Shown: piece after piece, positions 49,632 to 64,000 of the stretch
Position numbering within the stretch: the stretch's first letter is position 1
How the letters are laid out: each line of letters starts with the position of its first letter
Assembly (NCBI GenBank): GCA_963807525.1
Contig: CAWECI010000025.1
Location: 95,056-159,055, forward strand
Source of the DNA: Candidatus Aminicenantes bacterium
GTDB taxonomy: Bacteria > Acidobacteriota > Aminicenantia > Aminicenantales > Saccharicenantaceae
Direction: 5' to 3'
DNA length: 64,000 nucleotides
Notes under the pieces: generated by a model
Told to the model about the DNA's origin: nothing
Database searches by the model: none
Seen by the model: the letters and a program-made list of their open reading frames with translations, nothing else
Translations under genes and position numbers: made by a program

Positions 49632-50013
49632 GGGAGGGCCCGCCGACTTTCTTCAGGCTCAGGATCCAATCCTCGAGGACCTTGATTGAGGCCGGGCCCA
49701 GAGCCTTGGTCGGAGGCATCCTGTCGCCTTTGATGCCCTTCTCGCCGCGGACCTTCTTCAGGACGTAGCTCGACTCGGGCGCGGCCGTGTCGATGATCTT
49801 CAGCGAGGGAACCTCCCGGCTCGGGGCGTCGATCGCCGCCTCGATCTTCTTCGCTTCCCAGCTCAGGCCGCGCGGGGGGAACTTGCCGTGGTGACAGTCC
49901 AGGCAATTCTTGGCGAAAACGGATGCGACCTCGCCTGGCACCTTGATCTGGGCCCACGCTCCCATGGCAGCGATGGCGAGAAGGGCGAGACCCGCGGGCA
50001 AGATCTTCTTCAT
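49624..50013 (-). CDS. Monoheme c-type cytochrome (planctomycete cytochrome c-like)
   Basis: Signal peptide; single CLDCH; RMPP distal Met; IKVLEDWI. Confidence 0.82.
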   Translation of the reverse strand: MKKILPAGLALLAIAAMGAWAQIKVPGEVASVFAKNCLDCHHGKFPPRGLSWEAKKIEAAIDAPSREVPSLKIIDTAAPESSYVLKKVRGEKGIKGDRMPPTKALGPASIKVLEDWILSLKKVGGPSPT

Positions 50014-50064
50014 GGGCGGCTCCTTGGCCGGTGCGGGACGCCTGCCCGTCCAGAACTCTCCGGC

Positions 50065-50859
50065 TCATCCCTTCGGGGTATATTTATACTCGGATCCGAG
50101 CAGGCTGTGGGGGATCAGAAAGACGATGAGCGTGACGAGCGAGGCCGCGATGACCAGCGGCCGGACCGGCTTGCCCTTGCGGCCGGCGATCCAGGCCGCG
50201 ACCCAGAACAGGAACGCGATGAGCGTCTTGTTGTCGGTCAGGTCCATGCCCGCCGGGAAGCCGGCCCAGGCGACGCCGAAGGCGAACTTCTGGACCAGGG
50301 GCCCGAGCACGAAGCCGCCGAGGAAAAGAAAAGCGAGCGTCCAGAGCGTCAGCCGGCGCGGGTCCCTCTTCTTGTCGATCGCGGCCAGGCCCGCCGCTGT
50401 CGCCAGGAGCATGCCGGCGAACATGACCAGGGCATGGGGGATCAGGAGGCCCAGCGGGACCGGGTCCTTGAAGCGAACGACCGCCGGGGCCTCGCCGGTC
50501 ACCGTCTTCGATTCGCCCGCGTTCGTCAGGACGATCCGATAGGCGATCTTGCCGGCGGCCGGCTGCTGAGGGAGGCTCCCGACGAGCCGGTCGTCTTGCC
50601 GGATGAGCGCCGAGCCCGCCCACGCGTCCGTCGTCCCGACCCGCTGCCACTCGACCCGGCCTTCGATCGGCGCCGGCGCCAGCAGGGCCAGCTTGGCGTC
50701 CGCTCCGGTGTCGGCGCTGCGCGGCAGTCGGTACTTGATGTCCACGCCGCCGACCGCGGCCTGGCCCCTGATCGGGTAGGTCGGCCCCGTGACGCGCTGA
50801 TAGACCGCCGAGGCCAGGGTGACGACGACGGCCAGGGTCCAGAACAGGCCTTTTCGCAT
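50065..50859 (-). CDS. Hypothetical membrane protein
   Basis: YQRVTGPTYP N-terminus; four C-terminal TMs; IPHSLLGSE. Confidence 0.8.
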   Translation of the reverse strand: MRKGLFWTLAVVVTLASAVYQRVTGPTYPIRGQAAVGGVDIKYRLPRSADTGADAKLALLAPAPIEGRVEWQRVGTTDAWAGSALIRQDDRLVGSLPQQPAAGKIAYRIVLTNAGESKTVTGEAPAVVRFKDPVPLGLLIPHALVMFAGMLLATAAGLAAIDKKRDPRRLTLWTLAFLFLGGFVLGPLVQKFAFGVAWAGFPAGMDLTDNKTLIAFLFWVAAWIAGRKGKPVRPLVIAASLVTLIVFLIPHSLLGSEYKYTPKG

Positions 50860-50864
50860 GTCGC

Positions 50865-51557
50865 CTACCCTTTGACTTCGATCGAGCCGAGCACGGCCGA
50901 TCCGTGGATAGTCAGCGTCGCCGACGTCGCCCCTTCGGCCGCCGGCTTGTGGTTCTCGATCGAGCCGAGCACCGGGGTGCCCTGGAGGGCGACCTGCCAG
51001 TCGCGGGGCACGAAGACCGTGATGCTGCCGAAGACGACGGACAGGACGAGCGTGGCCTGTCCGCCGGCAAGCCGGGCGTTCCGCAGATCGATGTCGGCCG
51101 AGCCGAAGACGATGTCGGCCTTGCCGCCGCGGAAGTTCTGGGATTCGATCCTGTGGACCTGGCCCGAGAAGACCTGGTTGACGGAAAGATCGTCCCCGGC
51201 GGTCATCTCAGGTAGTTTTTTTTTGTCCGGATGCCAGGCCGGCCGCAACAGGACCCACAACCCGACGGCGATGATGGCCAGCGGCCAGACGTAGTGCCAG
51301 ACCGCCCGGTCGAAGATCCTCAGCCTAAGAAGCAGGAAGAACGTGCCGAACAGGATGAAGAAGACGGCCGAGCCCACGTTCCGGAAGTTGTTGCTGAACA
51401 GGATGGAGACGCCGATGAGGATGAAGAGAACCGGCCAATAGCGGCCGACGAGGTCGCCGAAATCCACGCGGCCCATCTGGTCCAGCAGGAAGAGGACGCC
51501 CAGAAGGATCAGCAGGAGGCCCCAAAAGATGCGGCCCTGGTTCTTGTGCTCTCTCAT
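50865..51557 (-). CDS. LiaF/LiaI-like cell-envelope stress membrane protein (DUF5668 + DUF2154-like)
   Basis: RIFWGLLLILLGVLFLL, YWPVLFILIG; FRGGKADIVFGSADIDLR, VFGSITVFVPRDW. Confidence 0.82.
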   Translation of the reverse strand: MREHKNQGRIFWGLLLILLGVLFLLDQMGRVDFGDLVGRYWPVLFILIGVSILFSNNFRNVGSAVFFILFGTFFLLLRLRIFDRAVWHYVWPLAIIAVGLWVLLRPAWHPDKKKLPEMTAGDDLSVNQVFSGQVHRIESQNFRGGKADIVFGSADIDLRNARLAGGQATLVLSVVFGSITVFVPRDWQVALQGTPVLGSIENHKPAAEGATSATLTIHGSAVLGSIEVKG

Positions 51558-51616
51558 TGTTCCCTCCGCCAGGCACTAGGATATCAGAACGGTCCGGGTC
51601 TGTAAAAAGGCCCGGA

Positions 51617-52429
51617 TCAGAGACGGCGGATGCCCATGCCGCCGCTGACCTCGATCGCCGCCCCGGTCGAATAGCCGAAGTCGCCGCGCGCCAGGGCCGC
51701 CACCGCCCGGCCCACGTCTTCGGGCTTGCCCCAGCGCCCCTGCGGGATGAGACCCGCGGCGATGAGCTTGTCGTACTTGGCCTTGACCGCCGCGGTCATG
51801 CCCGTGGCGATGATGCCGGGGCGCACCTCGAAGACATCGATCCCCCGGCCGGCCAGGGCGTCGGCGAACAGGGTCGCGGTCATGCTCAGGGCCGCTTTCG
51901 AGACGCAGTACTCGGGCCGCGAGACGGACGACCAGGCGGCCGAGATCGACGTGATAAAGATGATGGCTGGGCGCCGGCCGTCCTTGACCGGTTTCTGGGC
52001 GGCCATTCTCCGGGCCGCGTTCTGGGTCAGGAAGAACGGCCCCCGGGCGTTGACGGCCATGAGCCGGTCGTAGCTCTCCGGGCCCGTCTCCAGGATGTCC
52101 GTCCGCCGGAGCGGCGCGACGCCGGCATTGTTGACCAGGACGTCGATCCGGCCGCAGACGCCGTAGGCGGCGGCGAGCATGCGGTCGTGATCGTCGATGC
52201 GGGAGATGTCGCCGGCGACGGGAAGGAAGCGGCCGCCGAGCTCCTCGACCCGGGCCTTGACCTCGAAGAGTCCCTTGGTCCCATTTCCGGGATCGAATTC
52301 GATGTCGATGCCGACGATGTCGAAGCCTTCCCGGGCCAAGGCCATAACGATGCCCCGGCCGATGCCGCGGCCGGCTCCGGTGACCACCGCGGCCGGCGCG
52401 GCCGGTTGTTTCTTCGGGCTCACGCTCAT
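51617..52429 (-). CDS. SDR family oxidoreductase (3-ketoacyl-ACP-reductase-like)
   Basis: TGAGRGIG, NNAG, S..YCVSK, RPGIIATGMT, GRWGKPEDVG. Confidence 0.92.
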   Translation of the reverse strand: MSVSPKKQPAAPAAVVTGAGRGIGRGIVMALAREGFDIVGIDIEFDPGNGTKGLFEVKARVEELGGRFLPVAGDISRIDDHDRMLAAAYGVCGRIDVLVNNAGVAPLRRTDILETGPESYDRLMAVNARGPFFLTQNAARRMAAQKPVKDGRRPAIIFITSISAAWSSVSRPEYCVSKAALSMTATLFADALAGRGIDVFEVRPGIIATGMTAAVKAKYDKLIAAGLIPQGRWGKPEDVGRAVAALARGDFGYSTGAAIEVSGGMGIRRL

Positions 52430-54441
52430 TCCTCCTCGACGATGGTCCGGTCATTCCGATAATCGGCCCAAACGGATTCGAACCAGCCTTCCGGGTGGGG
52501 GATCGGCCGCACCGGGACCCATCTCTTCTCGGGCAGTCCCTGGCCGTCCACGCGGATCTCGAGAATGTGCGAGGAGACGAAGTCCGCCGGCGCGGCCAGC
52601 GAAAAGGCCCACGGCGTCCCGAGCATGGAGTGGGGGATCGTCCCGGCCGTGTCGGGAACGAGATAGGACCCCCGGCTCTTCCCGCCGCGCCCGAGGTACT
52701 CGTCGATGGCTTCGAGATAGACGGCCTGGGTCAGGGCCAGGCCCAGAGCCTGGAAGCCTCGGGGCAGGTCGCGGGCCGAGGCGACGCCGATGTCCCGTCG
52801 GGCCCTGAGCCACAGCCCGCGGGCCCGCGTCTTTTCGAGGCGCACCTGGCCCGGGTTCCGGACGACCGCGCCGCAGGCCGACATGCGCCGCCGCACTTCC
52901 GCCAGGCAGGCCTCCGGGGTCAGGGCGTTCGACCGGAGATCGAGCATGGCCTCGGCCTGACGCCACTTCCCGAGGACGAGCGGGGCCGCGGCCCGGGCGA
53001 AGTCGGGTTCCGGCAGGGGCCCCCCGGCGCGCTGGCGCGAGATGAACAGCGCGGCCCGGGCGGCGCCGACCTGCCCGGCGTTGAGCGCCGAGCCGCCCGG
53101 CCTGGTCACGCCGTGGGTGCCGCAGAGCTCGCCGACCGGGAAGAGTCCGCGGAGGCTGGACTCCCACCAGATCGAGCCCCGGAAACCGCCGTTGTTGTGC
53201 TGGGCGCAGACGGCGATCTCCAGCGGCTCGCGGCGAAGGTCGATGCCGTGGGCCCGGTAGAGCTCGACGGCCGGAGGGTTCATCCGGATCAGGCGCGCGA
53301 TCGGCGTCGGCCGCAGCGCGTCCGACTTCTCGAGATAGGCCGCGGCCTCGGGGCCGAGCTGTTTCGGCTCGAACGGCCGGAGGCGGCCGTCGCCGCGGGC
53401 GTCGCTCCGGAAATCGAGGAAGACCCGGCGGCCTTTGACCACGGTCTCGTTATAGACGATGAGGTCGATGAGCGACGATCCGCCGTCGACGGCCCGCCGC
53501 GGGTCGAACGGCCACTGGTAGCCTTTGAGGAAGACGGCCGTGGCCAAGGCGCCCATGTCCGAGAAGTAATCGTTGAGGAACTCCCGCGGGTCCTTGCCCG
53601 CGGCGTCGGTCGAGATATAGCGGGGCACCGCCTGCTGGTAGCTTCCGGAGACGTTCCAGCGGAACTTGGTCGAAGCCAGGCCGAACTGGGATTCGGTCAG
53701 GTTCTGGGCCACGGCGCCCGCCTCGAAGAGCAGCCCGTGCGACCCGGCCTGGCTCTCCGGATAGACCGAATGCTCATACAGGCCCCCCGGGCCGCCCGTG
53801 GCCGCGACGACATTCGCCGCGTTGAAAAGGACGAAACCGCGGTCCGGCCGTCCGAGCTTCCGGGTATCGAGGGCCAGGGCGCCGATCGCCTTCTTGGCCA
53901 CCCCCCGGCCGGATGTGAGCAGGGCGATCACCGCGTGTCCGTCGAAGGTCCGGATCCTCCGCCGCTTGACCTCCCGGGCCAGGGCTTCGAACATGAGCTT
54001 GGAGGTCAGCGGCCCGGCCGAGGTGGCCCGCTGGCGCGGATCGTGGTCGGTCTTGTAGCCGACATAGGCGCCGAAGCGATCGTGAGGGAACGGCACACCC
54101 AGGCCGACGAGGTGGAAAAAGGCCTCGAGCGAACCCTGGGCTTCGACGAGAGCGATATCGCCGTGCATGGAGCCGCCGGCGGCCAGGTCGCAAGCCATGT
54201 CGGCGGCGGAATCGGGCACGTCGCCGGCCAGCGAGAGCTTGTAGTAGGTCTGCTTGTCGGAGCCGGATTCGGCCGAAGCTCCCGTTCCGAGCCGCTCGGT
54301 GACGATGGCGATGTCGGTCTGCCCGAGCTCGTGCAGACGGACGGCCGCGTTGAGCCCGGCCGCCCCGCTGCCGATGATGAGCGTGTTCAGGGAGTGGACC
54401 GGGAAGGCCCGCCCGCCGATCCGGACCTGGCCCGATCTCAT
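52426..54441 (-). CDS. FAD-binding protein, SdhA/FrdA/NadB flavoprotein superfamily
   Basis: IIGSGAAG, SGSDKQTYYK, GYKTDHDP..RATSAGP, ATGGPG, CAQHNNGG, GELCGTHGVTRPGGSALNAGQVG; ATG 54441 overlaps the upstream stop. Confidence 0.88.
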   Translation of the reverse strand: MRSGQVRIGGRAFPVHSLNTLIIGSGAAGLNAAVRLHELGQTDIAIVTERLGTGASAESGSDKQTYYKLSLAGDVPDSAADMACDLAAGGSMHGDIALVEAQGSLEAFFHLVGLGVPFPHDRFGAYVGYKTDHDPRQRATSAGPLTSKLMFEALAREVKRRRIRTFDGHAVIALLTSGRGVAKKAIGALALDTRKLGRPDRGFVLFNAANVVAATGGPGGLYEHSVYPESQAGSHGLLFEAGAVAQNLTESQFGLASTKFRWNVSGSYQQAVPRYISTDAAGKDPREFLNDYFSDMGALATAVFLKGYQWPFDPRRAVDGGSSLIDLIVYNETVVKGRRVFLDFRSDARGDGRLRPFEPKQLGPEAAAYLEKSDALRPTPIARLIRMNPPAVELYRAHGIDLRREPLEIAVCAQHNNGGFRGSIWWESSLRGLFPVGELCGTHGVTRPGGSALNAGQVGAARAALFISRQRAGGPLPEPDFARAAAPLVLGKWRQAEAMLDLRSNALTPEACLAEVRRRMSACGAVVRNPGQVRLEKTRARGLWLRARRDIGVASARDLPRGFQALGLALTQAVYLEAIDEYLGRGGKSRGSYLVPDTAGTIPHSMLGTPWAFSLAAPADFVSSHILEIRVDGQGLPEKRWVPVRPIPHPEGWFESVWADYRNDRTIVEEE

Positions 54442-55463
54442 CGGATCGTTCGTCCTTTCAGCGCCGGGGAGGCCAGGAGCGCCGTCGCGGCCAGGAACAC
54501 GAGGCCGAAGACGGTCCAGGCGTCGGTCGCGAAGAAGAGCACGCCGCAGGTGATGATCCACAGGAACCCGAAATAGATCCACCAGCTTCTCTTGAAAAAG
54601 AGGACGCCGACGAGGATGAGGGTCAGGGCCAGGAAACCGGCCAACGCCGCGCGCAGGTCGGCCGTTTCCTTGATGATCAGGCCGGCGTAGATCGCGGGGA
54701 CGAACAGCCACAGCCCCCGGCGCTTCCTCAGGGTGATCAAGAGGGCCGCCCCCAACGCCGCGGCAGCGAATCCGAAGGTGGCCACGGCCTCGAGCCAGCC
54801 GGGGGGACCGGGCCGCCGTCCTTCCGCCAGCCTCTCGATCCTGACCATCATCGTCCTCTCCATGACGAAATGGGCCGGTTCGAGGAGCCAGAAACTGAAC
54901 AGGCGCCCTATGATCCCGGGCGGCGGACCGCCCCGGCTTCGGGCGTAGAACCGCGTCCCCCCGTCGGCCGTCGGCTCGAGGGCGAACGTGCCCCAGTTCC
55001 TGAGCGTCAGGGACTCGCCGGGCGCCACGAAGGCGACCTTCCAGCCCGGCAAGAACGTTTTTTTTGGCAGGCCGAACAGATAATCCGGCTTGACGCCGCG
55101 GACGAGGTCCTTGGCCTGCCGCGTCTGCCACTCCGGCCGGATCGCATAAGTATTGTGGATGTCCGCGAGGGTCAGGTTCTCGAGCCAGGTGTGGCTGTAG
55201 AAACCGGCCCGGTCCTGGCCGATCTGGATAAGCCATTCCCAAACCTTCGTCGGCGGCGCTTTGACGGTGATGGCCCGGGTGCCGGTGACGACGCCGCCGA
55301 TCCAGGCGTCGTCACCGAGCACGGCCCGCGTCCGCTCCTGCGGCGTCGTTCCCCAATTGGCGAAAAAGGGACGGGCCAGGAGGGAATAGGCCGCGATGGC
55401 GGCCAGGATAATAACGAAGGACGTGCCCGTGATCACGAGCCAGGTCCTCTCGGCCTTGTTCAT
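54438..55463 (-). CDS. Membrane protein with SRPBCC-like domain
   Basis: WGTTPQER, TRAITVKAPPTKVWEWLIQIGQDRAGFYSHTWLEN, HFVMER; C-terminal TMs. Confidence 0.75.
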   Translation of the reverse strand: MNKAERTWLVITGTSFVIILAAIAAYSLLARPFFANWGTTPQERTRAVLGDDAWIGGVVTGTRAITVKAPPTKVWEWLIQIGQDRAGFYSHTWLENLTLADIHNTYAIRPEWQTRQAKDLVRGVKPDYLFGLPKKTFLPGWKVAFVAPGESLTLRNWGTFALEPTADGGTRFYARSRGGPPPGIIGRLFSFWLLEPAHFVMERTMMVRIERLAEGRRPGPPGWLEAVATFGFAAAALGAALLITLRKRRGLWLFVPAIYAGLIIKETADLRAALAGFLALTLILVGVLFFKRSWWIYFGFLWIITCGVLFFATDAWTVFGLVFLAATALLASPALKGRTIR

Positions 55464-56800
55464 CCGTTGTGTCCTTTCGCCGCGGCCTTGCCGTATTCCG
55501 GGTCCCGCACGGCGCAGCCGACGTGTCTCTGGCGGCGCAGGAGGTGCGAACAGAGGGAGCACGTCGTGCAGACCTTCTTTGGCGAGAGACGGCCGTGGCG
55601 GATGAGATCGGCCGCGAAGTCCGGATAGGCGAGGGCGCCCCGGCCGAGCCCGAACGCGGCGCTGCGTCCGGCCGAGACCATGGCCGCGGCGACCCCGGGG
55701 CCGAGGGTGCGGAGCCAGGAATACCCGGCCCCCACGACCGGGGTCCAGGGCGACGACCGCTGGATCTCGGTGGCGATCCGGAGATGGCGGGCCACGCCTT
55801 CGAGCGGGTGCTCGTCCGGAAGCGGGCCGCCGGGGACGGGTTCGTCGAACGGCCGCCCGTAGTGGGACCTCCAGGCCGGGATGCCGAGGGACAAGGCCAG
55901 GAACCAGACGCCCGCCCGGGCCAGCAAGGCCACGAGGGCCTTGGTTTCCGTGAGGTCGATCCGGTCCGGGTCATCGGCGTCCATGCCGAACCCGTACGGG
56001 AAGGGGAGACAGTCCGTCGCGGAGATCCGGCTGGTGACCAGGATCCCGGGCGCTTCCTCGCGGATGTGCCGGACGATCTCCAGCAGCAGCCGGGCCCTGT
56101 TCTCGAAGGGACCGCCGTAGCGGCTGCCCTCGCGGCTGCGCGCGGCCAGCGTCTCCGAAACGAGATAGCCGTGACAGGCCTTGATATCGACGCCGTCGAA
56201 CCCCGCCGCCGCGGCCAGGCCGGCGGCCTCGACGAAATCGTCCCGGATGGCCGCCAGCTCGCCGTCGGAAACGACCAGAGCGTCGGGCGGCAGCTCGTGG
56301 AGGGGATCGAGGTGGGGGTTGTGCTGGACGATGATCGGCCGGGGTAATCCCTCGGGCTTGGCGAACCGGCCCGAATGCGTCAGCTGGAGAAGGAGGAGGG
56401 GGTTGTGACCGGCGCCCCATTCTCTGCGGGCCGCGTCCCGGGTCTCCTCGACGAGCCGGGCGAACCCCCCCTGCGTTCCTTCGGTCACCATCAGCTGGTT
56501 CGGGTTCGAGCGGCCGCCCGGCCGGACGGCGGCGGCCTCGCACCAGATCAGGCCGGCCCCTCCGGCCGCCGCCCGCCGGTAGCGGCGCCGCGTCAGATCG
56601 GAGGGTGCACCCGAGGCCTCGGCGTCCGCCCCCTCCATGGGCAGGACGGCCAGCCTGTTGGGGACCTCGCGCCCGCCGAAGAGGGCCCGGTCGAGGAGGA
56701 TCGAGATCTCGTCCTGGTAAGGGATGTCGAGTCCGAGACGCTCGGCCTCGACGCGGAGATCGCCCGCTCCCCGCAGCCGGAATCTCTCGTGCGTCGCCAC
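55460..56800 (-). CDS. NADH:flavin oxidoreductase / Old Yellow Enzyme family
   Basis: NRLAVLPMEG, LIWCEA, QLTHSGR, GFDGVDIKACHGYL, YGGPFENR, FGLGR, C-terminal CTTCSLC..C. Confidence 0.92.
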   Translation of the reverse strand: MATHERFRLRGAGDLRVEAERLGLDIPYQDEISILLDRALFGGREVPNRLAVLPMEGADAEASGAPSDLTRRRYRRAAAGGAGLIWCEAAAVRPGGRSNPNQLMVTEGTQGGFARLVEETRDAARREWGAGHNPLLLLQLTHSGRFAKPEGLPRPIIVQHNPHLDPLHELPPDALVVSDGELAAIRDDFVEAAGLAAAAGFDGVDIKACHGYLVSETLAARSREGSRYGGPFENRARLLLEIVRHIREEAPGILVTSRISATDCLPFPYGFGMDADDPDRIDLTETKALVALLARAGVWFLALSLGIPAWRSHYGRPFDEPVPGGPLPDEHPLEGVARHLRIATEIQRSSPWTPVVGAGYSWLRTLGPGVAAAMVSAGRSAAFGLGRGALAYPDFAADLIRHGRLSPKKVCTTCSLCSHLLRRQRHVGCAVRDPEYGKAAAKGHNG

Positions 56801-56801
56801 T

Positions 56802-57797
56802 CTATGTCCTGGGGCCGGCGGCCATGCGCCGCACGGCCTGGAGGTCGCGCTTGACCCGGGGCTCGCAGACCGCCGGCCAGCGGTCCCGGGCCAGAACGGA
56901 GAGCTTCCCGGCGTCGAGCAGCGCCTGGGTCTTGACGCCGAGGCCGACGAGCCGAACGAGCTCGGGCACGGCCAGGTCCGGGAAACGGGCCAGGAAGTCG
57001 GGATCGGCGACCGGGATGGCGAAGTCGCCGCCGTGGTCCTCGACGGTCAGCGTCAGATGCGGGTGGGCCGCCGCGAGCGTCTCGATGATGGCCGGAAGAT
57101 CGATCACCCCCTTGCCGGCCTCGGCCGTGAACGAGACGAAGCCGTCGGGCCCGAGCTTCAGGCCGCCGTCCTTGACGTGGGTGGTCACGACCCAGGGCAG
57201 GAGCCGGCGCGAAGCCAGGACCGGGTCCTCGAGCATGGTCAGAAGGTTCATCGTGTCCAGGCAGATGCCCAGCCCTTCGCCGGGCGCCGCCCCGCACATG
57301 TCGAAGAGGCGCAGCAGCTCGAAGGAGGTGAACTCGAAGTGGGTCTCGATCGCCAGGATGACGCCCAGGTCCCGCAGCATCGGCCTCTGCTCGCCGAGCG
57401 AGGCGGCCATGAGCCGGAGGAGCTCCTGGGTCGGCCGGGCGTCCTTGGCCCAGCGCATCAGCCCGCCCGAGCAGGAGCGGACCGTCGCGGCGCCCAACTG
57501 GCGGGCCTGCTCTGCGGCGCGCCGGTTGATCGCGGCGATATCTTTCGGCCGGCCGGTGGCGAGGTCGACGGGGATGTGTTCGCCCCCGCCCCACTCGAGG
57601 TACAGGCGGTTCTCCCGGGCGAAGCCGCCGAGCTCCTGCAGGAAGGTCTTGTCGATGACCGTGCCGGGCGGCACGTTGACCTCGGAGAATTGGACCCCGT
57701 CGGCCCCGTTCAGGACCGCCCACTCGATAAGCTCGAACGGCGACAGATCGAGGGGCTTCAGGCTGTAGCTGTCGATTCCGACCCTGAGCGCTTTCAT
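56802..57797 (-). CDS. Sugar-phosphate isomerase/epimerase (xylose isomerase-like TIM barrel)
   Basis: GIDSYS, LAIETH, CLDTMN, THVKDG, TVED metal motifs. Confidence 0.87.
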   Translation of the reverse strand: MKALRVGIDSYSLKPLDLSPFELIEWAVLNGADGVQFSEVNVPPGTVIDKTFLQELGGFARENRLYLEWGGGEHIPVDLATGRPKDIAAINRRAAEQARQLGAATVRSCSGGLMRWAKDARPTQELLRLMAASLGEQRPMLRDLGVILAIETHFEFTSFELLRLFDMCGAAPGEGLGICLDTMNLLTMLEDPVLASRRLLPWVVTTHVKDGGLKLGPDGFVSFTAEAGKGVIDLPAIIETLAAAHPHLTLTVEDHGGDFAIPVADPDFLARFPDLAVPELVRLVGLGVKTQALLDAGKLSVLARDRWPAVCEPRVKRDLQAVRRMAAGPRT

Positions 57798-58079
57798 GTC
57801 CCCGTCCGGCGGTCCTCATTCTATCAGTTTTCAAGGACCCTTGACCAGCCTGCTTTATTCATAAAAACGCCCATATTTCTTTGTCTCACTCTGATCAGGC
57901 GTTTTTACCCTGCGGGCGAACCGATCCGACCCCATCTGCTTCGTTCTCGGGGATTCGCAGTACCAAAGAGTACAGCTTCACCCCTCGGCCTCCCATCTGG
58001 GGCCGCCTCGATTCGTGAATAATTCAGGCCAGATGTACCGGCTTGAAAAAACGGGGGCCTTGGGATATCCTACCGTCCC

Positions 58080-58787
58080 ATGAGACGGACTTTTGCGGCC
58101 CTGGCGCTGCTTTTGGCGCTCATCCCGGCCGCGGCCCGCGGCCAGTCGTCGCTGGTCGCGGAGATCGCCGGGGACAAGGCGGCCACCCCGAAGCTCTTTT
58201 TCAGCCTCAAGTTCGGGCTCAACTTCTCGCACTTGACGGGAGCCGTCGATATGCGGCACACCGGCGGCGTCAGCTTCGGTCTCACCGCGACCATCCGGCT
58301 GAGCGACCGCTTCTCCCTCGTGCCCGAGATCACCCCCTTCCTGCGCAAGGGCGTTTCGGACATTCCCCTGGGCACGACCGGCGACCCGGGGCTCGATCCG
58401 TTCTTTGCCGACCCGGCGTCTTCGGAGCTCGCCCTGGACTACGTGGACTTCCCGGTCCTCGTGACCTACCGTCTGGGCCGGTTCCATCTCGGCGCCGGGC
58501 CTTATGTCGCCCTGCTCAGCACCGCCCGGGAGATCTTCCGGAGCGAGCCCACGACCGACCAATCGCTGAGGTTCTCGCGCGATGTCACGAGCCAGTACAA
58601 GACGACGGATGCCGGGCTGGCCGTCGAAGCGTCCTGGACCATGGCCAAGCCCCGGCGGGGCCTGGGCCTGATCCTCCACGTCCGCTATGAGGCCGGGCTC
58701 CTGAACGTCCGGGCCGCCCCGTCGGCGACGGGCTCCGGCCGGAACTCGGTCATCCAGGTCTTTCTGAGCTTTCCGTTCGTTCTCTGA
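58080..58787 (+). CDS. Outer-membrane beta-barrel (porin/PorT-like) protein
   Basis: Signal peptide; FSLKFGLNFS, LDYVDFPVLVTY, GAGPYVALL, RYEAGL, terminal aromatic strand. Confidence 0.8.
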   Translation: MRRTFAALALLLALIPAAARGQSSLVAEIAGDKAATPKLFFSLKFGLNFSHLTGAVDMRHTGGVSFGLTATIRLSDRFSLVPEITPFLRKGVSDIPLGTTGDPGLDPFFADPASSELALDYVDFPVLVTYRLGRFHLGAGPYVALLSTAREIFRSEPTTDQSLRFSRDVTSQYKTTDAGLAVEASWTMAKPRRGLGLILHVRYEAGLLNVRAAPSATGSGRNSVIQVFLSFPFVL

Positions 58788-58830
58788 TAAAGGCCCGCAA
58801 GGCCGCGCATTTTTCCGGAGGAGAGTCGAG

Positions 58831-59454
58831 ATGCTGAACAAGATGCAGGACGCCCTGATCGCCGGCAAGAAGGCCGAAGTCGAAGCGCTCGTCGACCAGG
58901 CCCTGGCCGCCGGGATACCGGCCGGCACAATCCTGAACGAAGGCCTGATCCCGGGCATGGCGCGGCTCGGCGTCCAGTTCAAGGCCAACGAGGTCTTCAT
59001 CCCCGAGGTCCTCGTCGCCGCCCGGGCCATGAACGCGGGCCTGGCCAAGCTCGAGCCGCACCTGGCCAAAGCCGGGGTCAAGCCGCGCGGCGTCGTCGTG
59101 ATCGGCACGGTCAAGGGCGATCTCCACGACATCGGCAAGAACCTGGTGGCCATGATGCTTCGCGGCAACGGCTACAAGATCGTCGACCTGGGCGTCGACG
59201 TCGCGCCCGAGAAATACCTGGAGGCGGCCAGGGCGAACCAAGCCAGCGTCATCGCCCTGTCGGCCCTGCTGACGACGACCATGGTCCAGATGAAGACGGT
59301 CATCGAGGCCGTCGAGAAGGCCGGGCTCAAGGTCCCGATCGTCATCGGCGGCGCGCCGGTCACCAAAGATTATGCCGACCAGATCCACGCCAGCGGCTAC
59401 GCCCCCGACGCCGCCTCCGCCGTCGAGGAGATCAGCCGCCTCATCGCCGCCTGA
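58831..59454 (+). CDS. Methyltransferase cognate corrinoid (cobalamin-binding) protein
   Basis: EVFIPEVLVAARAM, GTVKGDLHDIGKNLV (DxHxxG), SALLTTTM, IGGAPV. Confidence 0.94.
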   Translation: MLNKMQDALIAGKKAEVEALVDQALAAGIPAGTILNEGLIPGMARLGVQFKANEVFIPEVLVAARAMNAGLAKLEPHLAKAGVKPRGVVVIGTVKGDLHDIGKNLVAMMLRGNGYKIVDLGVDVAPEKYLEAARANQASVIALSALLTTTMVQMKTVIEAVEKAGLKVPIVIGGAPVTKDYADQIHASGYAPDAASAVEEISRLIAA

Positions 59455-60458
59455 TGACCTCTCGCGAGCTGGTCGTCGCCAGCCTCGAGCTCCGCGGCCC
59501 GGAGCGAGTGCCGCGCCAGCTCTGGACCCTGCCCTGGGCCCAATGGACCTGGCCCCGGGAGCTGGCCGGGATCGCCCGGAGGTTCCCTGACGACATCGTG
59601 ACCTGTCCCGCGTTCCTGCGCGAGCCGCTGCGGACGAGCGGGCAGGAATACGAGCCCGGGCTCTTCGTCGATGAATGGGGCTGCCGCTTCGAGAACAAGC
59701 AGCGCGGCATCATCGGCCAGGTCAAGGAGCCCGTCCTCCGCAGCTGGGACGATCTCGACGCCGTCCGGGTGCCCCGCGAGCGGCTGAGCGTCGACACCGG
59801 TCAGGTCGACCGATTTTGCGAGGCCTCGGAGGCCTTCGTGCTGGCCAAGACCTGGTCCCGCCCGTTCGAGCTCGTCCAGTTCCTGCGCGGCCCGGAGAAC
59901 CTCTATGTGGACCTGGCCGAGCGGCCGGCCGGGCTCGAGCGCCTCCTCGAGAAGGTCCACGCGTTCTATCTCGAGGAAATGGCGATCTGGGCCTCGACAG
60001 ATGTCGACGCCCTTGTTTTCGCCGACGACTGGGGCGGACAGGGCTCGCTTCTCGTCGCGCCCGCCCTGTGGCGGGAGCTGTTCAAGCCGCTCTACCGGGA
60101 CTATGTCGAGATGGCCCACCGCCACGGCAAGTACGCTTTCATGCACTCGGACGGGCACATCGAGGCCATCCTGCCGGACCTCGTGGAGATCGGCCTCGAC
60201 GCGCTGAACTCCCAGCTCTTCACCATGGACATCGACGGGATCGGGGCGCGCTTCGCCGGGCGGCTGACCTTCTGGGGCGAGGTCGACCGGCAGCACCTCC
60301 TGCCGTACGGCACGCCGGCCGAGGTCCGGGCGGCGGTCTGCACGGTGCGGCGGGCCCTCTGGCGCCGGGGCGGGGTCATCGCCCAGTGCGAGTTCGGCAT
60401 CGGCGCCAGGCCCGAGAACGTGGCGGCGGTGTTCGAAGCCTGGGACGAGCCCTTTTGA
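59454..60458 (+). CDS. Uroporphyrinogen decarboxylase/MtaA-like superfamily protein
   Basis: DEWGC, LRGPENLYVDL, FADDWGGQ, HSDG, FWGEVDRQ, QCEFG; TGATG overlap with the corrinoid gene. Confidence 0.85.
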   Translation: MTSRELVVASLELRGPERVPRQLWTLPWAQWTWPRELAGIARRFPDDIVTCPAFLREPLRTSGQEYEPGLFVDEWGCRFENKQRGIIGQVKEPVLRSWDDLDAVRVPRERLSVDTGQVDRFCEASEAFVLAKTWSRPFELVQFLRGPENLYVDLAERPAGLERLLEKVHAFYLEEMAIWASTDVDALVFADDWGGQGSLLVAPALWRELFKPLYRDYVEMAHRHGKYAFMHSDGHIEAILPDLVEIGLDALNSQLFTMDIDGIGARFAGRLTFWGEVDRQHLLPYGTPAEVRAAVCTVRRALWRRGGVIAQCEFGIGARPENVAAVFEAWDEPF

Positions 60459-60466
60459 CGGCAGAG

Positions 60467-60475
60467 TGATATAAT
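60467..60475 (+). promoter_or_regulatory. Extended -10 promoter
   Basis: TGATATAAT followed by SD GAGGAGG. Confidence 0.55.
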
Positions 60476-60527
60476 TCGAAGATAGCCGGGAGGACCGGCG
60501 GTCCCCTCGGGCCTGAGGAGGTCACAT

Positions 60528-61358
60528 ATGACACGAACGATGCGCTGGGCCTTTTTGGTCCTGGCGGCGGCGGCCGCGCTGGCCGTCCCCGCGTTCCCCA
60601 ACGATACCTTGGTGAGCAGTGCGTGGACCTCCGCGCCGGTCAAGATCGACGCCCAAGGCCAGGATTGGCAGGGCGTCCCCATGCTGACCGACAAGGACTC
60701 CAAGGCCGAATACGCCCTCGTCAACGACGGCCAGAACCTCTATATCCTCTTCGTGTTCAAGACGCCCGAGGCGGCCTCGACGATCGAGGCCACGGGCTTG
60801 AAGATCTACTATGGCGCCGCGGACAAGAAGAGCAAGGATCGCGGCGTGCACTTTCTGAAGAAGAGCGTGACCGCCGAGGCGCTGATCGCCAGCCTGGAAA
60901 AACAGGGCGAGACCCTGACCGAGGCCCGCCAGGCCGAGCTCCGGCAAAAGAAGGACTATATCCTGTTCGAGGCCGACGTCATCAACCCCAAGAAGGTCCC
61001 GGCGCCGACCGATCCGGCCGTCAAGACCGAGCCGCCCCTCTTCCATGCGGCCCGGGCCCAGGGCCTGGTGTACGAATGCCGCATTCCCCTCAGCCGCACC
61101 AACCAGCCCGGCGGCTTGGGCGTCGAGGCGGGCGGCGCCGTCAAGATCGGCTTCGATTGGGGCGGCCTGACGGACGAGATGAAGCGGAACATGATGGCCC
61201 CGAGCGGCCTGTCCGGCGCGCGCACCTCGACCGGCGACAGCCTCGCCAACCCGCGGAACGATGAGGCCAGGGACAGCGGGGCCATGCTGAGGCACGATCC
61301 GAGAACGAAGGAGCACGCCTTCTGGATCGACGTCAAGCTGGCCGCCGAAGGCCGCTAG
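60528..61358 (+). CDS. Exported hypothetical protein (CBM9/DOMON-like start)
   Basis: Signal peptide ending AFP; PVKIDAQGQDW, NDGQNLYILF, YECRIPL, FWIDVKLA. Confidence 0.75.
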   Translation: MTRTMRWAFLVLAAAAALAVPAFPNDTLVSSAWTSAPVKIDAQGQDWQGVPMLTDKDSKAEYALVNDGQNLYILFVFKTPEAASTIEATGLKIYYGAADKKSKDRGVHFLKKSVTAEALIASLEKQGETLTEARQAELRQKKDYILFEADVINPKKVPAPTDPAVKTEPPLFHAARAQGLVYECRIPLSRTNQPGGLGVEAGGAVKIGFDWGGLTDEMKRNMMAPSGLSGARTSTGDSLANPRNDEARDSGAMLRHDPRTKEHAFWIDVKLAAEGR

Positions 61359-61423
61359 GCCTCAGCGACCCGACGTCCCTGCTTGTTCGGGCGGGCACAT
61401 GTCCGCCCCGGGGGCCCGCGGGG

Positions 61424-62341
61424 TCAGAACGGCCGTGACGCCAGATAGGCCCCGATCAAGGCCAGGCCGACCGCCAGGAGCTTCCAACCCGTCAAGCGTT
61501 CCTTGAGGAAGATCGCCGCGATGATGACGATGAAGATCGTGTTGAGCTGATTGAGGACCGCGGCGACCGAGGCCTTGACGTACGTCATGCCGCCCATCCA
61601 CAGGATCAGCGAAAGATAGGACCCGAAGAAGGCCGCCGGGATGAGGACCGGCAGGTTGCGCCGTTCGAGGAGAGGGGCCAGCAGGGCCCTCCGGTTCCTC
61701 AGGAAGGGCGTCAGGACGGCCAGGGCCGCCGCCCCGCCGGCCAGGCGGACGAAGGTTGACCAGAAGACCGAGACCGAGCCCAGCACGGGCTTGACCATGA
61801 CGATGCCGAAGGCGACGAAGAACATCGCCAGGATGCCGTAAAGGATGCCCCAGGCGAGGTCCTTCCGTCCGATCTTTTCGAGCTTCCCTTCTTTGGCCAG
61901 GGTCAGGATGGCGGAGACGACGAGCCCGGCCCCGGCCAGCTGGATGAAGGTCAGCCGCTCGCCGAGCAGGGCGAACGACAGGGCGATGACGAAGGGACTG
62001 TAGAAACAATCGACGATCGCGGTCAGGCCGGCCCCGAGCCGGTTGAGGGCGTAGAAGAACAGCGTGTCCGAGACGGCGATGCCGAGGACCCCGCTCGCGA
62101 GAAGCAGCCAGGTCGTCGACGCGGGCACGGCCGGGAAGATGGGCTGGCCCAGGATGAGGAGCGTCGCGACGATGGCCGCCAGAGCCAGGACCGTCTTGCC
62201 CAGGTTCAGGGCGATCGGGTGGATGCGCCGCCCGCTGACGCGAAAGAGGACCACGGCGATGGCCCAGGCGAGGGCCGAAGAAGCGGCCAGCGTTTCCCCG
62301 AGCCCGTGCGGCGATCCAAGCGGATCCAACATGCCTGCCAT
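61424..62341 (-). CDS. DMT/EamA family transporter
   Basis: Ten TMs in two repeats; LAWAIAVVLFR, GVLGIAVSDTLFFYALNRLGA, LGERLT, LKERLT; alternative start 62332. Confidence 0.92.
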   Translation of the reverse strand: MAGMLDPLGSPHGLGETLAASSALAWAIAVVLFRVSGRRIHPIALNLGKTVLALAAIVATLLILGQPIFPAVPASTTWLLLASGVLGIAVSDTLFFYALNRLGAGLTAIVDCFYSPFVIALSFALLGERLTFIQLAGAGLVVSAILTLAKEGKLEKIGRKDLAWGILYGILAMFFVAFGIVMVKPVLGSVSVFWSTFVRLAGGAAALAVLTPFLRNRRALLAPLLERRNLPVLIPAAFFGSYLSLILWMGGMTYVKASVAAVLNQLNTIFIVIIAAIFLKERLTGWKLLAVGLALIGAYLASRPF

Positions 62342-62365
62342 CCTATAGGAGGACTGTCTTGGCCG

Positions 62366-62420
62366 CAAGATGGGGTCAAACCTACCTTTAATTACATTTT
62401 GGCAAAAGGTAGGTTTGACC
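62366..62420. repeat. REP-like palindrome disrupted by the IS (right arm continues at 63783-63800)
   Basis: caagatggggtcaaacctacctttt / aaaaggtaggtttgaccccgtcttg after removing the IS and one TSD; one mismatch in 25. Confidence 0.85.
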
Positions 62421-63782
62421 CAGTAGTGTCCCAACGTTAGTTAAATAGATTCAGTTGGTTAGAAGAGTATCTCGGGGTGGTTTAGGTTTGGCTGAAGTCA
62501 TTAAGGAATTGAGATAAGTGGCGACTTTTTCAAAAAGGGTCACGCTCAGGATCTGGAGAATTGTGTAAAGACTTCGGTCCGATTTTCAGTTTCTTTTTGA
62601 TGATGGCAACAAGAAGATAGACCGAGATCGGCAATCCAGATTTGGGTCTTTGACAGCATTCTCGGAGGTTCCGTAAGAATGACTTTAATGCGGAGATGTT
62701 GCTTGATCCATTTGAAGAACAATTCGATCTTCCACCGGCAGCGAAACAGTTCGGCAATCAGAAATCGACGGCAACGTGAAAGTTGTTGGTCAAGAAAGAT
62801 CAAGCCGCTTTCTGTTTCTGGGCGTCGAAGTCACGGATCCTTCGGAGCCGCTCGGGATAATCTCTCCGGGCATAGAAGCCGTGGAGGGCGATGATTTGAT
62901 CGGCTTGTACTCCTTTTGATTTGTCGACGCGGATGGGAGTAGATCCTCCGGAACCGAAAATTGCTTTTGGCCCGGATGATGAAGAAGGCCTCAGGGACTG
63001 ATGCAGATGCGTAGAGACGCGGGCAAAGTCGAGGATAGCCCCGGTCGAAAAGGTAAATAGCACCGGATTCGATGAGGAGGTCGTCGAGAAAATTGACCTC
63101 GTGCGTTTTTCCCGTTGGTTACGTAGATCAAAATCGGAATACTGCCGCGTAAATCCAGGAGGGTGTGGAGCTTGATCGCGCCTTTGTGCCGACGGAATCT
63201 GGCCCAGGGGAAAAGCGAGAGGCAAAGGTCGATCGTAGTGGCATCGAAGGCATAGACGGTTCTGTTGAAGCTCGACACCAAAATTTTCGTCGGCATATAG
63301 ATGACGGGCTTGGATGCATTAAGACTTGGGCGAAGTCGGCATAGATACGCCAATCGCGGGATTGGTTGGCGTGAGCCAGCGTATTGCGTGAGACTTTTCC
63401 GCGGATGCCCATATGATAGAGTTTCTGTTTGCGTGCCCCGTAAGACAGGCTTCGATATCGCGGAGACTTTCGCGATAGGTGAGCTGGGCAAAGGCCATGC
63501 AGAGGAACTGGTCCAAGCAGGAAAAGGTTTTGATTTTGTAATTGCCATGGTAGCGCTCGACGCGAGTGCCGAAACTCTCGTAGATGGGCAAAAAGTCCAT
63601 CAGTTGGGAGAAAATGGTTTTTCCAGAATTCATTAGCCCACTCCTTCTCTGGTTAGAGCTGAGGAAGTATGAGCATTTCGGGCAATTACAATTCAAATCG
63701 ATTCCGGCCCAAAACCCGGCTAGTCTATTGATAAACTAATAATGATAGAGATAGTCTTAAACCGAACGTTGGGACACTACTG
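62421..63782 (-). mobile_element. IS4-family insertion sequence (1362 bp)
   Basis: Perfect 18-bp TIR cagtagtgtcccaacgtt / aacgttgggacactactg; 10-bp TSD AGGTTTGACC (62411-20, 63783-92). Confidence 0.95.
62437..63633 (-). pseudogene. IS4-family DDE transposase (DUF4372 + DDE_Tnp_1), multiply frameshifted
   Basis: MNSGKTIFSQL, FAQLTYRESLRDIE, DATTIDLCLSLFPWARFR..KGAIKLHTLLDL, RWKIELFFKWIKQHLRIK, C-terminal QLNLF. Confidence 0.92.
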
Positions 63783-63844
63783 AGGTTTGACCCCGTCTTG
63801 GCTGACCGGCCCCTTCCGCGGTCCTATGGCGGCCTGCGTCCGGA

Positions 63845-63874
63845 TTGACCAGCGTAATGACGGCGTGCTATAAA
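63845..63874 (+). promoter_or_regulatory. Sigma70 promoter
   Basis: TTGACC-N18-TATAAA with TG extension; SD TAAGGAG downstream. Confidence 0.55.
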
Positions 63875-63894
63875 CGCGCCTAAGGAGACGCGCG

Positions 63895-64000
63895 ATGAGC
63901 AAGCCGAGATCTATCCCGTTCCTGGTCCTGGGGCTGGTCGTTCTGGCCTTGTCGGCCGTGCCGGCGGCCCAGGGGCTCCGGCCGGTCCCCGGGCGGACCG
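63895..64000 (+). CDS. 5' fragment of an exported protein (runs off the window)
   Basis: SD TAAGGAG; MSKPRSIPFLVLGLVVLALSAVPAAQ signal peptide. Confidence 0.65.
   Translation, partial: MSKPRSIPFLVLGLVVLALSAVPAAQGLRPVPGRT

Follow-up and report, generated by a model that had tools for sequence, protein, structure and literature searches.

A widespread OYE-flavoprotein-SDR module, possibly acting on sugar acids, and its corrinoid/UroD companion in a Candidatus Aminicenantes genome

The five-gene operon and the genes facing it

We analysed a gene cluster in a stretch of 64,000 nucleotides (the window) from an uncultured Candidatus Aminicenantes bacterium (assembly GCA_963807525.1, contig CAWECI010000025.1, forward-strand positions 95,056 to 159,055). 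The genome is referred to as G000 and the contig holding the window as C25; coordinates are those of the window unless a contig or another locus is named. The cluster (G+C 62-72%) contains a minus-strand operon that combines an old yellow enzyme (OYE) family protein, a flavoprotein and a short-chain dehydrogenase/reductase (SDR), and plus-strand genes facing this operon that include a corrinoid protein and a protein of the UroD superfamily.

According to the gene list, drawn up after removal of shadow open reading frames (ORFs), the first gene of the operon encodes a xylose-isomerase-like TIM barrel of the sugar isomerase/epimerase/eliminase family (56802-57797, minus strand; PF01261, E 4e-17). 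It is followed on the same strand by a short OYE-family flavin mononucleotide (FMN) protein of 446 aa with a C-terminal CxxCxxCx11C motif (55460-56800; PF00724, E 1e-21), a membrane protein with a possible SRPBCC-like domain in what is a variable operon slot (54438-55463; weak fold match), a 671-aa flavin adenine dinucleotide (FAD) flavoprotein with the FrdA/SdhA/NadB fold from an uncharacterised subfamily (52426-54441; PF00890, FAD_binding_2), and, as the final gene, a KduD/FabG-like keto-reductase of the SDR family (51617-52429; PF13561/PF00106). The TIM barrel and OYE genes are separated by a 1-nt gap and the other three junctions are 4-nt overlaps, so the gene calls agree with the first-pass annotation of this DNA, which had described five minus-strand genes joined in this way. 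The true start of the flavoprotein is MRSGQV (the start of a 938-aa ORF was discarded). A promoter-like site is found upstream of the TIM barrel gene (57818-57847, minus strand; 9/12 in a consensus scan plus a TG extension), and is a pattern match only.

The two divergent arms are separated by an intergenic region of 282 bp, with promoter-like sites pointing in both directions. On the plus strand are a small outer-membrane beta-barrel of 235 aa with a signal peptide (58080-58787; PF13568, OMP_b-brl_2, E 2e-14), a stand-alone corrinoid (B12-binding) protein (58831-59454; PF02607 and PF02310), and a UroD-superfamily protein, a probable corrinoid-dependent methyltransferase (59454-60458; PF01208, E 5e-16), whose gene shares 1 nt with the B12 gene. 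Searches of Pfam and NCBIfam confirm the facing outer-membrane barrel, B12 protein and UroD-like protein recognised in the first pass. The barrel had been called a porin; it is an outer-membrane barrel, but a small one of the PF13568 type rather than a classical diffusion porin, and the proposed import of the substrate through it found no support. An Rfam scan of window positions 50000-64000 (E<=0.1) returned zero matches, which indicates that a cobalamin or other riboswitch is absent.

For synteny, 20 loci were fetched from the same genus and order. The gene order TIM barrel, OYE, variable slot, flavoprotein, SDR and LiaF-like gene recurs in all 20 loci, which argues that the operon arrangement is not due to chance. 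The B12 gene (70-88% identical) is also close to the operon in 20/20, and in order-level relatives a peptidase S9 gene lies between the B12 and TIM barrel genes. The gene for the outer-membrane barrel is confined to the genus (46-63% identity) and is missing from some of its members.

The flavoprotein, its OYE neighbor and the remaining operon proteins

The AlphaFold2 (AF2) model of the flavoprotein (pLDDT 93) has the complete four-domain fold of SdhA/FrdA (Foldseek probability 1.0, TM 0.6-0.8, E 1e-28), with capping, helical and C-terminal domains accompanying the FAD_binding_2 fold (PF00890). The closest solved structures in Foldseek are SdhA, FrdA, AprA and NadB, at 15-19% identity, and none of the NCBIfam models for SdhA, FrdA, NadB, TfrA and AprA reaches its cut-off (15-79 bits as compared to cut-offs of 285-930). 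The flavoprotein is therefore not a known enzyme, and the earlier reading of the cluster, which depended on this, stands in that respect. The motifs GSDKQTYYK and KTDHDP, already singled out as distinctive in the first pass, are almost invariant family-wide (S61, D62, K63, Q64, T65 and Y66; T131, D132 and D134). Also invariant are H415 and R447, which align with H351 and R386 of NadB when the family profile is compared with it; residues of this type bind the substrate carboxylate in the SdhA/FrdA/NadB class of enzymes. While the flavoprotein shares the four-domain fold and this His/Arg pair with SdhA/FrdA, NadB and AprA, it differs from them in having an invariant glycine (G254) at the His position of the 'HPT' motif and no His at the position of covalent FAD attachment, the SdhA loop that carries that His being replaced by the GSDKQTYYK insertion; GSDKQTYYK and KTDHDP are loops of its own. 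The capping-domain Arg could not be aligned, and the family profile contains zero invariant or near-invariant cysteines. The family comprises 505 clusters at 50% identity (E<1e-30), with at least ~600 matching stretches in 185,579 reference-species genomes, and is confined to anaerobes from sediments, digesters and guts.

The OYE protein has a clear Oxidored_FMN barrel (PF00724, 77.7 bits; cut-off 27), and the FMN-site motifs QLTHSGR and CHGYL are conserved across 50 OYE orthologs. The four-Cys motif CxxCxxCx11C, located at residue 411, is kept in 48 of these 50 orthologs across phyla and is predicted to bind a [4Fe-4S] cluster. The protein ends 17 residues past the last Cys, with no further Pfam domain, and an NAD(P)H domain was found in none of the 50 orthologs (0/50). 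NCBIfam models of the FadH type, BaiCD and BilR give weak partial matches far under their cut-offs. Known Fe-S OYE enzymes (the 2,4-dienoyl-CoA reductase FadH, clostridial 2-enoate reductases, BaiCD/BaiH, the trimethylamine dehydrogenase TMADH and BilR) are similar in the OYE TIM barrel, the FMN-site residues and the four-Cys motif after the barrel (the spacing in TMADH is CxxCxxC...C), and would also be similar in the one-electron relay between two flavin sites. In contrast to those enzymes, which have fused FAD/NAD(P)H domains, the OYE here stops after the Cys motif, and its putative partner is the separate 671-aa flavoprotein with the FrdA fold. In one metagenomic representative (P0123, 1084 aa) the OYE and the flavoprotein are fused without a break, with the OYE part ending in ...GCAVRDPEYGG and the N-terminus of the flavoprotein following at once. 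Given the conserved Cys motif, the absence of an NAD(P)H domain, the P0123 fusion and the lack of an Fe-S site in the flavoprotein itself, we infer that the OYE and the flavoprotein form one two-subunit FMN/[4Fe-4S]/FAD enzyme.

In such an enzyme the Fe-S OYE would serve the FrdA-fold flavoprotein as SdhB/FrdB serves SdhA/FrdA. SdhA/FrdA, NadB and AprA also need an Fe-S partner; the difference is that no SdhB/FrdB or AprB gene is present here, and the adjacent candidate Fe-S protein is the OYE. The FAD site, with its putative carboxylate-binding His415/Arg447 pair, would add or remove hydrogen at the carbons beside the substrate carboxylate, and the cluster would carry electrons to or from the FMN site, where NAD(P)H or an enone intermediate may react. 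Electrons could flow in either of two directions: NAD(P)H oxidation at FMN would drive a reduction at FAD, or dehydrogenation at FAD would drive an ene-reduction at FMN.

With its TGxxxGxG and YxxxK motifs, the SDR belongs to the classical type; it matches NCBIfam PRK12745 at 319 bits (cut-off 250). Against the KduD model TIGR01832 it scores 149 bits (E 1e-43), without reaching the equivalog cut-off of 339. This KduD-like enzyme would then reduce a keto group, giving 2-keto-3-deoxygluconate (KDG) or a near analogue. The TIM barrel, where present, may contribute an isomerisation, epimerisation or beta-elimination; its nearest solved sequences are 3qc0, a 'sugar isomerase', and 3ju2, at an E-value no better than 1e-5.

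The membrane protein has an N-terminal transmembrane helix, a possible SRPBCC-like domain and a C-terminal transmembrane bundle (AF2 pLDDT 64). The first-pass assignment to SRPBCC can be kept only tentatively: the top Foldseek matches of this medium-confidence model are all of SRPBCC type (AHSA1/Bet v 1/cyclase; E 0.1-1, TM up to 0.55), but a Pfam search at E<=1 gave zero matches. Profile searches of the PDB with the SRPBCC-like and UroD-like proteins gave marginal matches at best. In relatives the slot holds an SRPBCC-like gene, nothing, or a small gene. We also observed a PFK-family kinase in the slot beside the OYE gene in one Aminicenantales family (L044, 11006-12211), and elsewhere a block with radical SAM/SPASM genes (L052, 6697-7689; L068 and L080), which are sized like anaerobic sulfatase maturases.

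Gene neighborhoods across phyla and the sugar-acid reading

We clustered all ORFs of 80 distant loci (other species, from a scan of reference genomes), whose hosts belong to Bacillota, Bacteroidota, Planctomycetota, Synergistota, Thermotogota, Acidobacteriota and others. An SDR gene adjacent to the flavoprotein gene is found in 55 of the 80 loci and an OYE gene in 49; the TIM barrel is found beside the trio in 20 (Aminicenantes, Acidobacteriota, Planctomycetota and one member of Bacteroidota). Judged from gene content, the conserved unit is the trio OYE-flavoprotein-SDR, which was found in Bacillota, Bacteroidota, Planctomycetota, Synergistota and Acidobacteriota. Other frequent neighbors are a fused KDPG aldolase-KDG kinase (Eda-KdgK; KDPG, 2-keto-3-deoxy-6-phosphogluconate) in 16 loci, separate Eda (8 loci) and separate PfkB (6), UroD orthologs (13), Gfo/Idh/MocA proteins of type 1 (11) and type 2 (8), the glycoside hydrolase (GH) family GH38 (8), an SSF symporter (8), the B12 protein (8) and LacI (7). 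TRAP, TTT and MFS transporters as well as IclR and AraC regulators are also found among the 80 loci.

Two cultured species give the most detailed contexts. Halanaerobium congolense has the order LacI-OYE-SDR-flavoprotein-TctC-Usp, a 158-aa ORF (probably TctB) and TctA, followed by a mannitol-dehydrogenase-family reductase (UxuB-like), UxaE, UxaC and an altronate-type dehydratase (UxaA). In H. kushneri the flavoprotein gene lies between GH28 polygalacturonase-like genes. In other Aminicenantes (L061, L066 and L069-L071), Eda-KdgK directly follows the SDR. We also noticed an IF-2B-family (MtnA-like) sugar-phosphate isomerase downstream of the flavoprotein in two Sedimentisphaerales loci; in L131 the two genes are direct neighbors, and in L129 Eda-KdgK lies between them.

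Overall, the module is real, widespread and uncharacterised, and it combines two known flavoenzyme folds in an unusual way; no description of the trio, or of a corrinoid/UroD pair in sugar loci, was found in the literature library that was searched. The first-pass suggestion that the cluster serves the catabolism of a sugar or sugar acid and is uncharacterised finds support in the KdgK/Eda, hexuronate, GH28/GH38 and carboxylate-transporter neighbors. Considering the neighbor families across phyla and in the present genome, the most economical reading, to which we give a slightly better than even chance, is that the operon is a cytoplasmic sugar-acid conversion module whose product enters the KDG kinase/KDPG aldolase route, and that the corrinoid/UroD pair is an optional add-on. 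The module is probably uronate-related.

The present genome contains KdgK and Eda on contig C7, and UxaC/UxaE on C13. Families that flank the trio elsewhere recur downstream on C25, 5-20 kb beyond the window (SSF, GH42, Gfo/Idh/MocA, the UroD paralog UroD2, GH38 and the family 'c42'); the SSF symporter there is 65% identical to the SSF protein of a Bacteroidota cluster (L112). In this region (L133; C25:158001-177500), genes for peptidase C69, the SSF symporter, an RlmN-like radical SAM protein, GH42 and a transposase of the IS200 type are followed by a minus-strand operon for 'c42' (678 aa, of no assigned family), GH38, UroD2 and Gfo/Idh/MocA, and then by a fusion of an aldo-keto reductase with a 4Fe-4S dicluster domain. 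KduI (PF04962) was found in none of 61 Aminicenantales genomes (G000 and G151-G210; positive controls included), although 30 of these genomes, G000 among them (contig C21), have GH88/105-like genes; the TIM barrel and the SDR could therefore stand in for KduI/KduD. The C21 locus (L135; C21:9001-27000) looks like one for pectin or unsaturated uronates and includes a heparinase II/III-like 'c45' homolog, a 362-aa classical OYE paralog, the GH88/105-like gene, GH28 and DUF4838.

Several observations weigh against the sugar-acid reading or limit it. The operon itself, in the genus, contains no kinase, aldolase, regulator or obvious importer, so it is by analogy with other lineages that we infer KDG as the end product in the present genome. 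A classical hexuronate route is already encoded in this genome, and the need for extra redox steps is not explained by the reading. Across the order, the presence of the flavoprotein is not significantly correlated with that of GH88-like genes (p=0.16), and a strict dependence on unsaturated uronate is accordingly not shown. P0123 is the single fusion found and may be an assembly artefact; moreover, the flavoprotein occurs without the OYE or the SDR in many loci (L098, L110, L113, L117 and L132), which means that an OYE-flavoprotein complex is not obligatory. In a minority of loci (L077, L122, L126 and L132) the flavoprotein is accompanied by one or more of the enzymes CoA-transferase, enoyl-CoA hydratase and acyl-CoA dehydrogenase. 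These loci suggest a variant pathway with CoA thioesters, and therefore a family that is not uniform and whose substrates differ between lineages. Two of them, L077 (Bacillus sp. V3-13) and L126, also have SDR and Eda genes nearby.

Among known systems, the funnel for unsaturated uronate (DHU), in which KduI or DhuI and then KduD or DhuD lead to KdgK and Eda (PMC12838403), is similar in its KduD-like SDR beside KDG kinase/KDPG aldolase, with UxaC, UxaE, GH28 and heparinase-like neighbors and KDG as the likely end. It differs in that the order here has no KduI, the SDR stays under the KduD cut-off, and the two large flavoenzymes have no counterpart.

The only characterised pathway we found with an OYE, an SDR and a fumarate-reductase-like flavoprotein in series is the conversion of daidzein into equol, by DZNR (OYE family), DHDR (SDR) and THDR (fumarate-reductase-like) (PMC4965515). 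By this analogy the operon could act on a hydrophobic enone (a flavonoid, steroid or terpenoid), with the OYE reducing C=C, the SDR reducing C=O, the FrdA-like protein catalysing a dehydroxylation and the SRPBCC-like protein binding the lipophile; the weak OYE matches to the BaiCD and BilR models would be consistent with such a route. SRPBCC folds are often lipid-binding, but the SRPBCC-like gene is variable here and often absent. DZNR carries its own NAD(P)H domain, which the OYE here lacks, and the flavoprotein keeps the carboxylate-binding His/Arg pair. Above all, the genes found nearby in the various phyla are those of sugar-acid metabolism, glycoside hydrolases and carboxylate transport, and not steroid or flavonoid genes; this carbohydrate/carboxylate context argues against a flavonoid-like substrate and leads us to rank the steroid/flavonoid route as highly improbable.

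As for the distribution of the sugar-acid candidate module near its present host, the flavoprotein is found in 43 of 61 close relatives and in 1 of 151 genomes of a phylum-wide Acidobacteriota sample, so it is not Acidobacteriota-wide, and its distribution is patchy and cross-phylum. Horizontal transfer via a homolog labelled 'Moduliflexus' (74% identity) was considered and rejected, since the contig of that homolog has Aminicenantes synteny and its label is doubtful. Flavoproteins 57-74% identical were seen in four metagenome-assembled genomes whose taxonomic labels look doubtful, L052 (labelled Candidatus Moduliflexus flocculans), L057, L065 and L074 (labelled Eubacteriales); L052 and L057 show Aminicenantes-type synteny.

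The flavoprotein family sits in polysaccharide and sugar-acid loci without an assigned reaction; if its substrate were identified, a gap that keeps returning could be closed in the metabolic reconstruction of Aminicenantes, Phycisphaerae, Bacteroidales, Halanaerobium and gut Clostridia. The module would also define a new wiring of an OYE to a complex-II-type flavoprotein.

The corrinoid/UroD pair and its relation to the operon

The B12 protein has B12-binding_2 and B12-binding domains above cut-offs and the motif GDLHDIGKN (DxHxxG). Its best NCBIfam matches are methyltransferase corrinoid proteins (MtgC, MtbC and TIGR02370; E 1e-61 to 1e-51, under cut-offs). The UroD-like protein has an invariant H231-S-D233-G and a near-invariant C312 with MtaA-like spacing, yet MtaA models match at only E 1e-7, and the protein is only distantly related to HemE as well as to MtaA, and very remote from solved structures. 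The zinc motif of MtaA is H-x-C, and an Asp stands at the first Cys position in the UroD-like protein. The first-pass view of the two as a pair is borne out by their translational coupling here and in a Phycisphaerales locus (L081), and by their adjacency in genome G213, i.e. in three lineages. In L081 the genes for the TIM barrel, OYE, flavoprotein, SDR, B12 protein, UroD and SSF lie on a single strand and overlap, and the B12 homolog within this operon is 47% identical to that of the window. Known systems of this kind, MtaA/MtaC and bacterial O-demethylases (PMC10418091), likewise have a stand-alone DxHxxG corrinoid protein and a UroD-fold protein, with the activase RACo elsewhere in the genome here; they differ in that only one methyltransferase is present here and that the loci are sugar-acid loci rather than loci of methylotrophy or acetogenesis.

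On contig C30, RACo, a corrinoid fusion protein and a fragment of MTTB are encoded (none of them inside the locus), which makes corrinoid methyl transfer plausible in this organism. This region (C30:119001-135000; L134, 6593-12159) contains an amino-acid permease and a RACo-type reductive activase with a 2Fe-2S domain. Its 589-aa protein has B12-binding_2 and B12-binding domains in the C-terminal 210 aa, with no Pfam match in the N-terminal ~370 aa, and its MTTB-family piece of 237 aa covers only profile positions 24-231 of 500, which could reflect a split gene, a frameshift or recoding.

UroD orthologs (45-60% identity; distinct from the paralog UroD2) are found in the flavoprotein loci of eight further genomes outside the genus, from Planctomycetota, Acidobacteriota and Bacteroidota. 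Of 8 distant genomes checked, 7 have a single copy of the ortholog, which lies inside the flavoprotein locus. Within the genus, 20 of 33 genomes with the flavoprotein have the UroD ortholog, always beside the cluster; about 40% of the operon-bearing members, near-complete genomes included, have no UroD ortholog anywhere and retain the B12 gene. In other phyla, the B12 gene and UroD are both missing from the majority of trio loci. Of 81 Phycisphaerae genomes, the flavoprotein is encoded in 10, the UroD ortholog in 11, and both in 4 (1.4 expected; hypergeometric p=0.026), with the two adjacent in 1. The expected co-occurrence of the two arms in other genomes is thus seen in the L081 operon and in 7 of the 8 distant genomes, but it is not obligate, given the losses in the genus and the many trio loci without both genes. 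We conclude from these sequence comparisons that the corrinoid/UroD genes are very probably a real methyltransferase-type pair and an optional companion of the module, outside its conserved core. In some lineages the pair may strip a methyl group from the substrate of the module, so that demethylation of a methylated sugar is possible.

A stronger version would have both arms serve one methylated sugar or sugar acid (e.g. 4-O-methylglucuronate), through uptake, O-demethylation onto the corrinoid protein and remodelling by the flavoenzymes and the SDR. The B12-UroD coupling in the window, the position of the two genes inside the L081 operon, the single-copy UroD ortholog in 7 of 8 distant flavoprotein loci, the above-chance co-occurrence in Phycisphaerae and RACo in the genome all argue for it, and the UroD superfamily does include corrinoid-dependent O-, S- and halide-demethylases (PMC10418091). 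However, about 14 genus members have the operon and the B12 gene with no UroD ortholog, both genes are missing from most trio loci, and in Phycisphaerae 6 of the 10 flavoprotein genomes are without UroD and 7 of the 11 UroD genomes without the flavoprotein. Moreover, the locus lacks a second methyltransferase for unloading the corrinoid, the UroD protein bears only a very distant similarity to MtaA, with H-S-D-G in place of H-x-C, and the flavoenzymes would be superfluous for plain glucuronate. We therefore regard a single pathway of both arms as rather unlikely. The opposite account, that the arms are unrelated neighbors kept together by descent, would have the corrinoid/UroD pair use another methyl donor or acceptor (methylamines, methoxylated aromatics or methyl-sulfur compounds) and would take the outer-membrane barrel, a secreted protein and an EamA transporter as envelope genes. 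It draws on the patchy presence of UroD, the peptidase S9 gene that splits the B12 gene from the TIM barrel gene in order-level relatives, the glycine-betaine and methylamine types among the best corrinoid-protein matches, and more than 10 UroD paralogs and the separate RACo-corrinoid-MTTB locus in the genome. In addition, synteny across the order is no sign of shared function, since it is just as strong for the LiaF-like gene and EamA as for the B12 gene. On the other hand, descent cannot account for independent adjacencies across phyla: B12 and UroD lie in the operon in L081, UroD orthologs lie between Eda-KdgK and an SSF symporter in L076 and L108, and beside GH38/Gfo genes in L071, L079 and L127. 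We consider this account doubtful too.

The boldest combination would be that the OYE and the flavoprotein are an undescribed two-subunit FMN-[4Fe-4S]-FAD redox enzyme for uronate-type sugar acids in anaerobes, coupled here to a corrinoid/UroD O-demethylase, which would be the first corrinoid route for methyl-etherified sugars such as 4-O-methylglucuronate; taken as a whole, it appears quite improbable to us. If the corrinoid/UroD pair does act on a sugar methyl ether, corrinoid demethylation would widen from aromatics and C1 compounds to carbohydrates, which would matter for how glucuronoxylan, pectin and algal glycans are turned over under anaerobic conditions.

Other genes flank the two arms. 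Downstream of the SDR gene, the LiaF-like membrane protein (50865-51557, minus strand; PF22570, PF18917 and PF09922) is found in this position in 20/20 genus and order loci and has its own promoter-like site (51606-51578, minus strand; a pattern match from the consensus scan); it is probably unrelated to the operon though equally syntenic. On the other side is the secreted protein of 276 aa (60528-61358, plus strand), with a signal-peptide-like N-terminus, no Pfam match and no assigned family, whose copies in the genus and order loci are 32-67% identical and syntenic with the B12 gene. The EamA/DMT-family transporter follows (61424-62434, minus strand; PF00892 twice); its position beside the B12 gene is conserved in the genus, and some order-level relatives share it. 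Directly past the EamA gene (window positions 62000-64000), the G+C content falls from ~0.68 to 0.54, with a strong GC skew.

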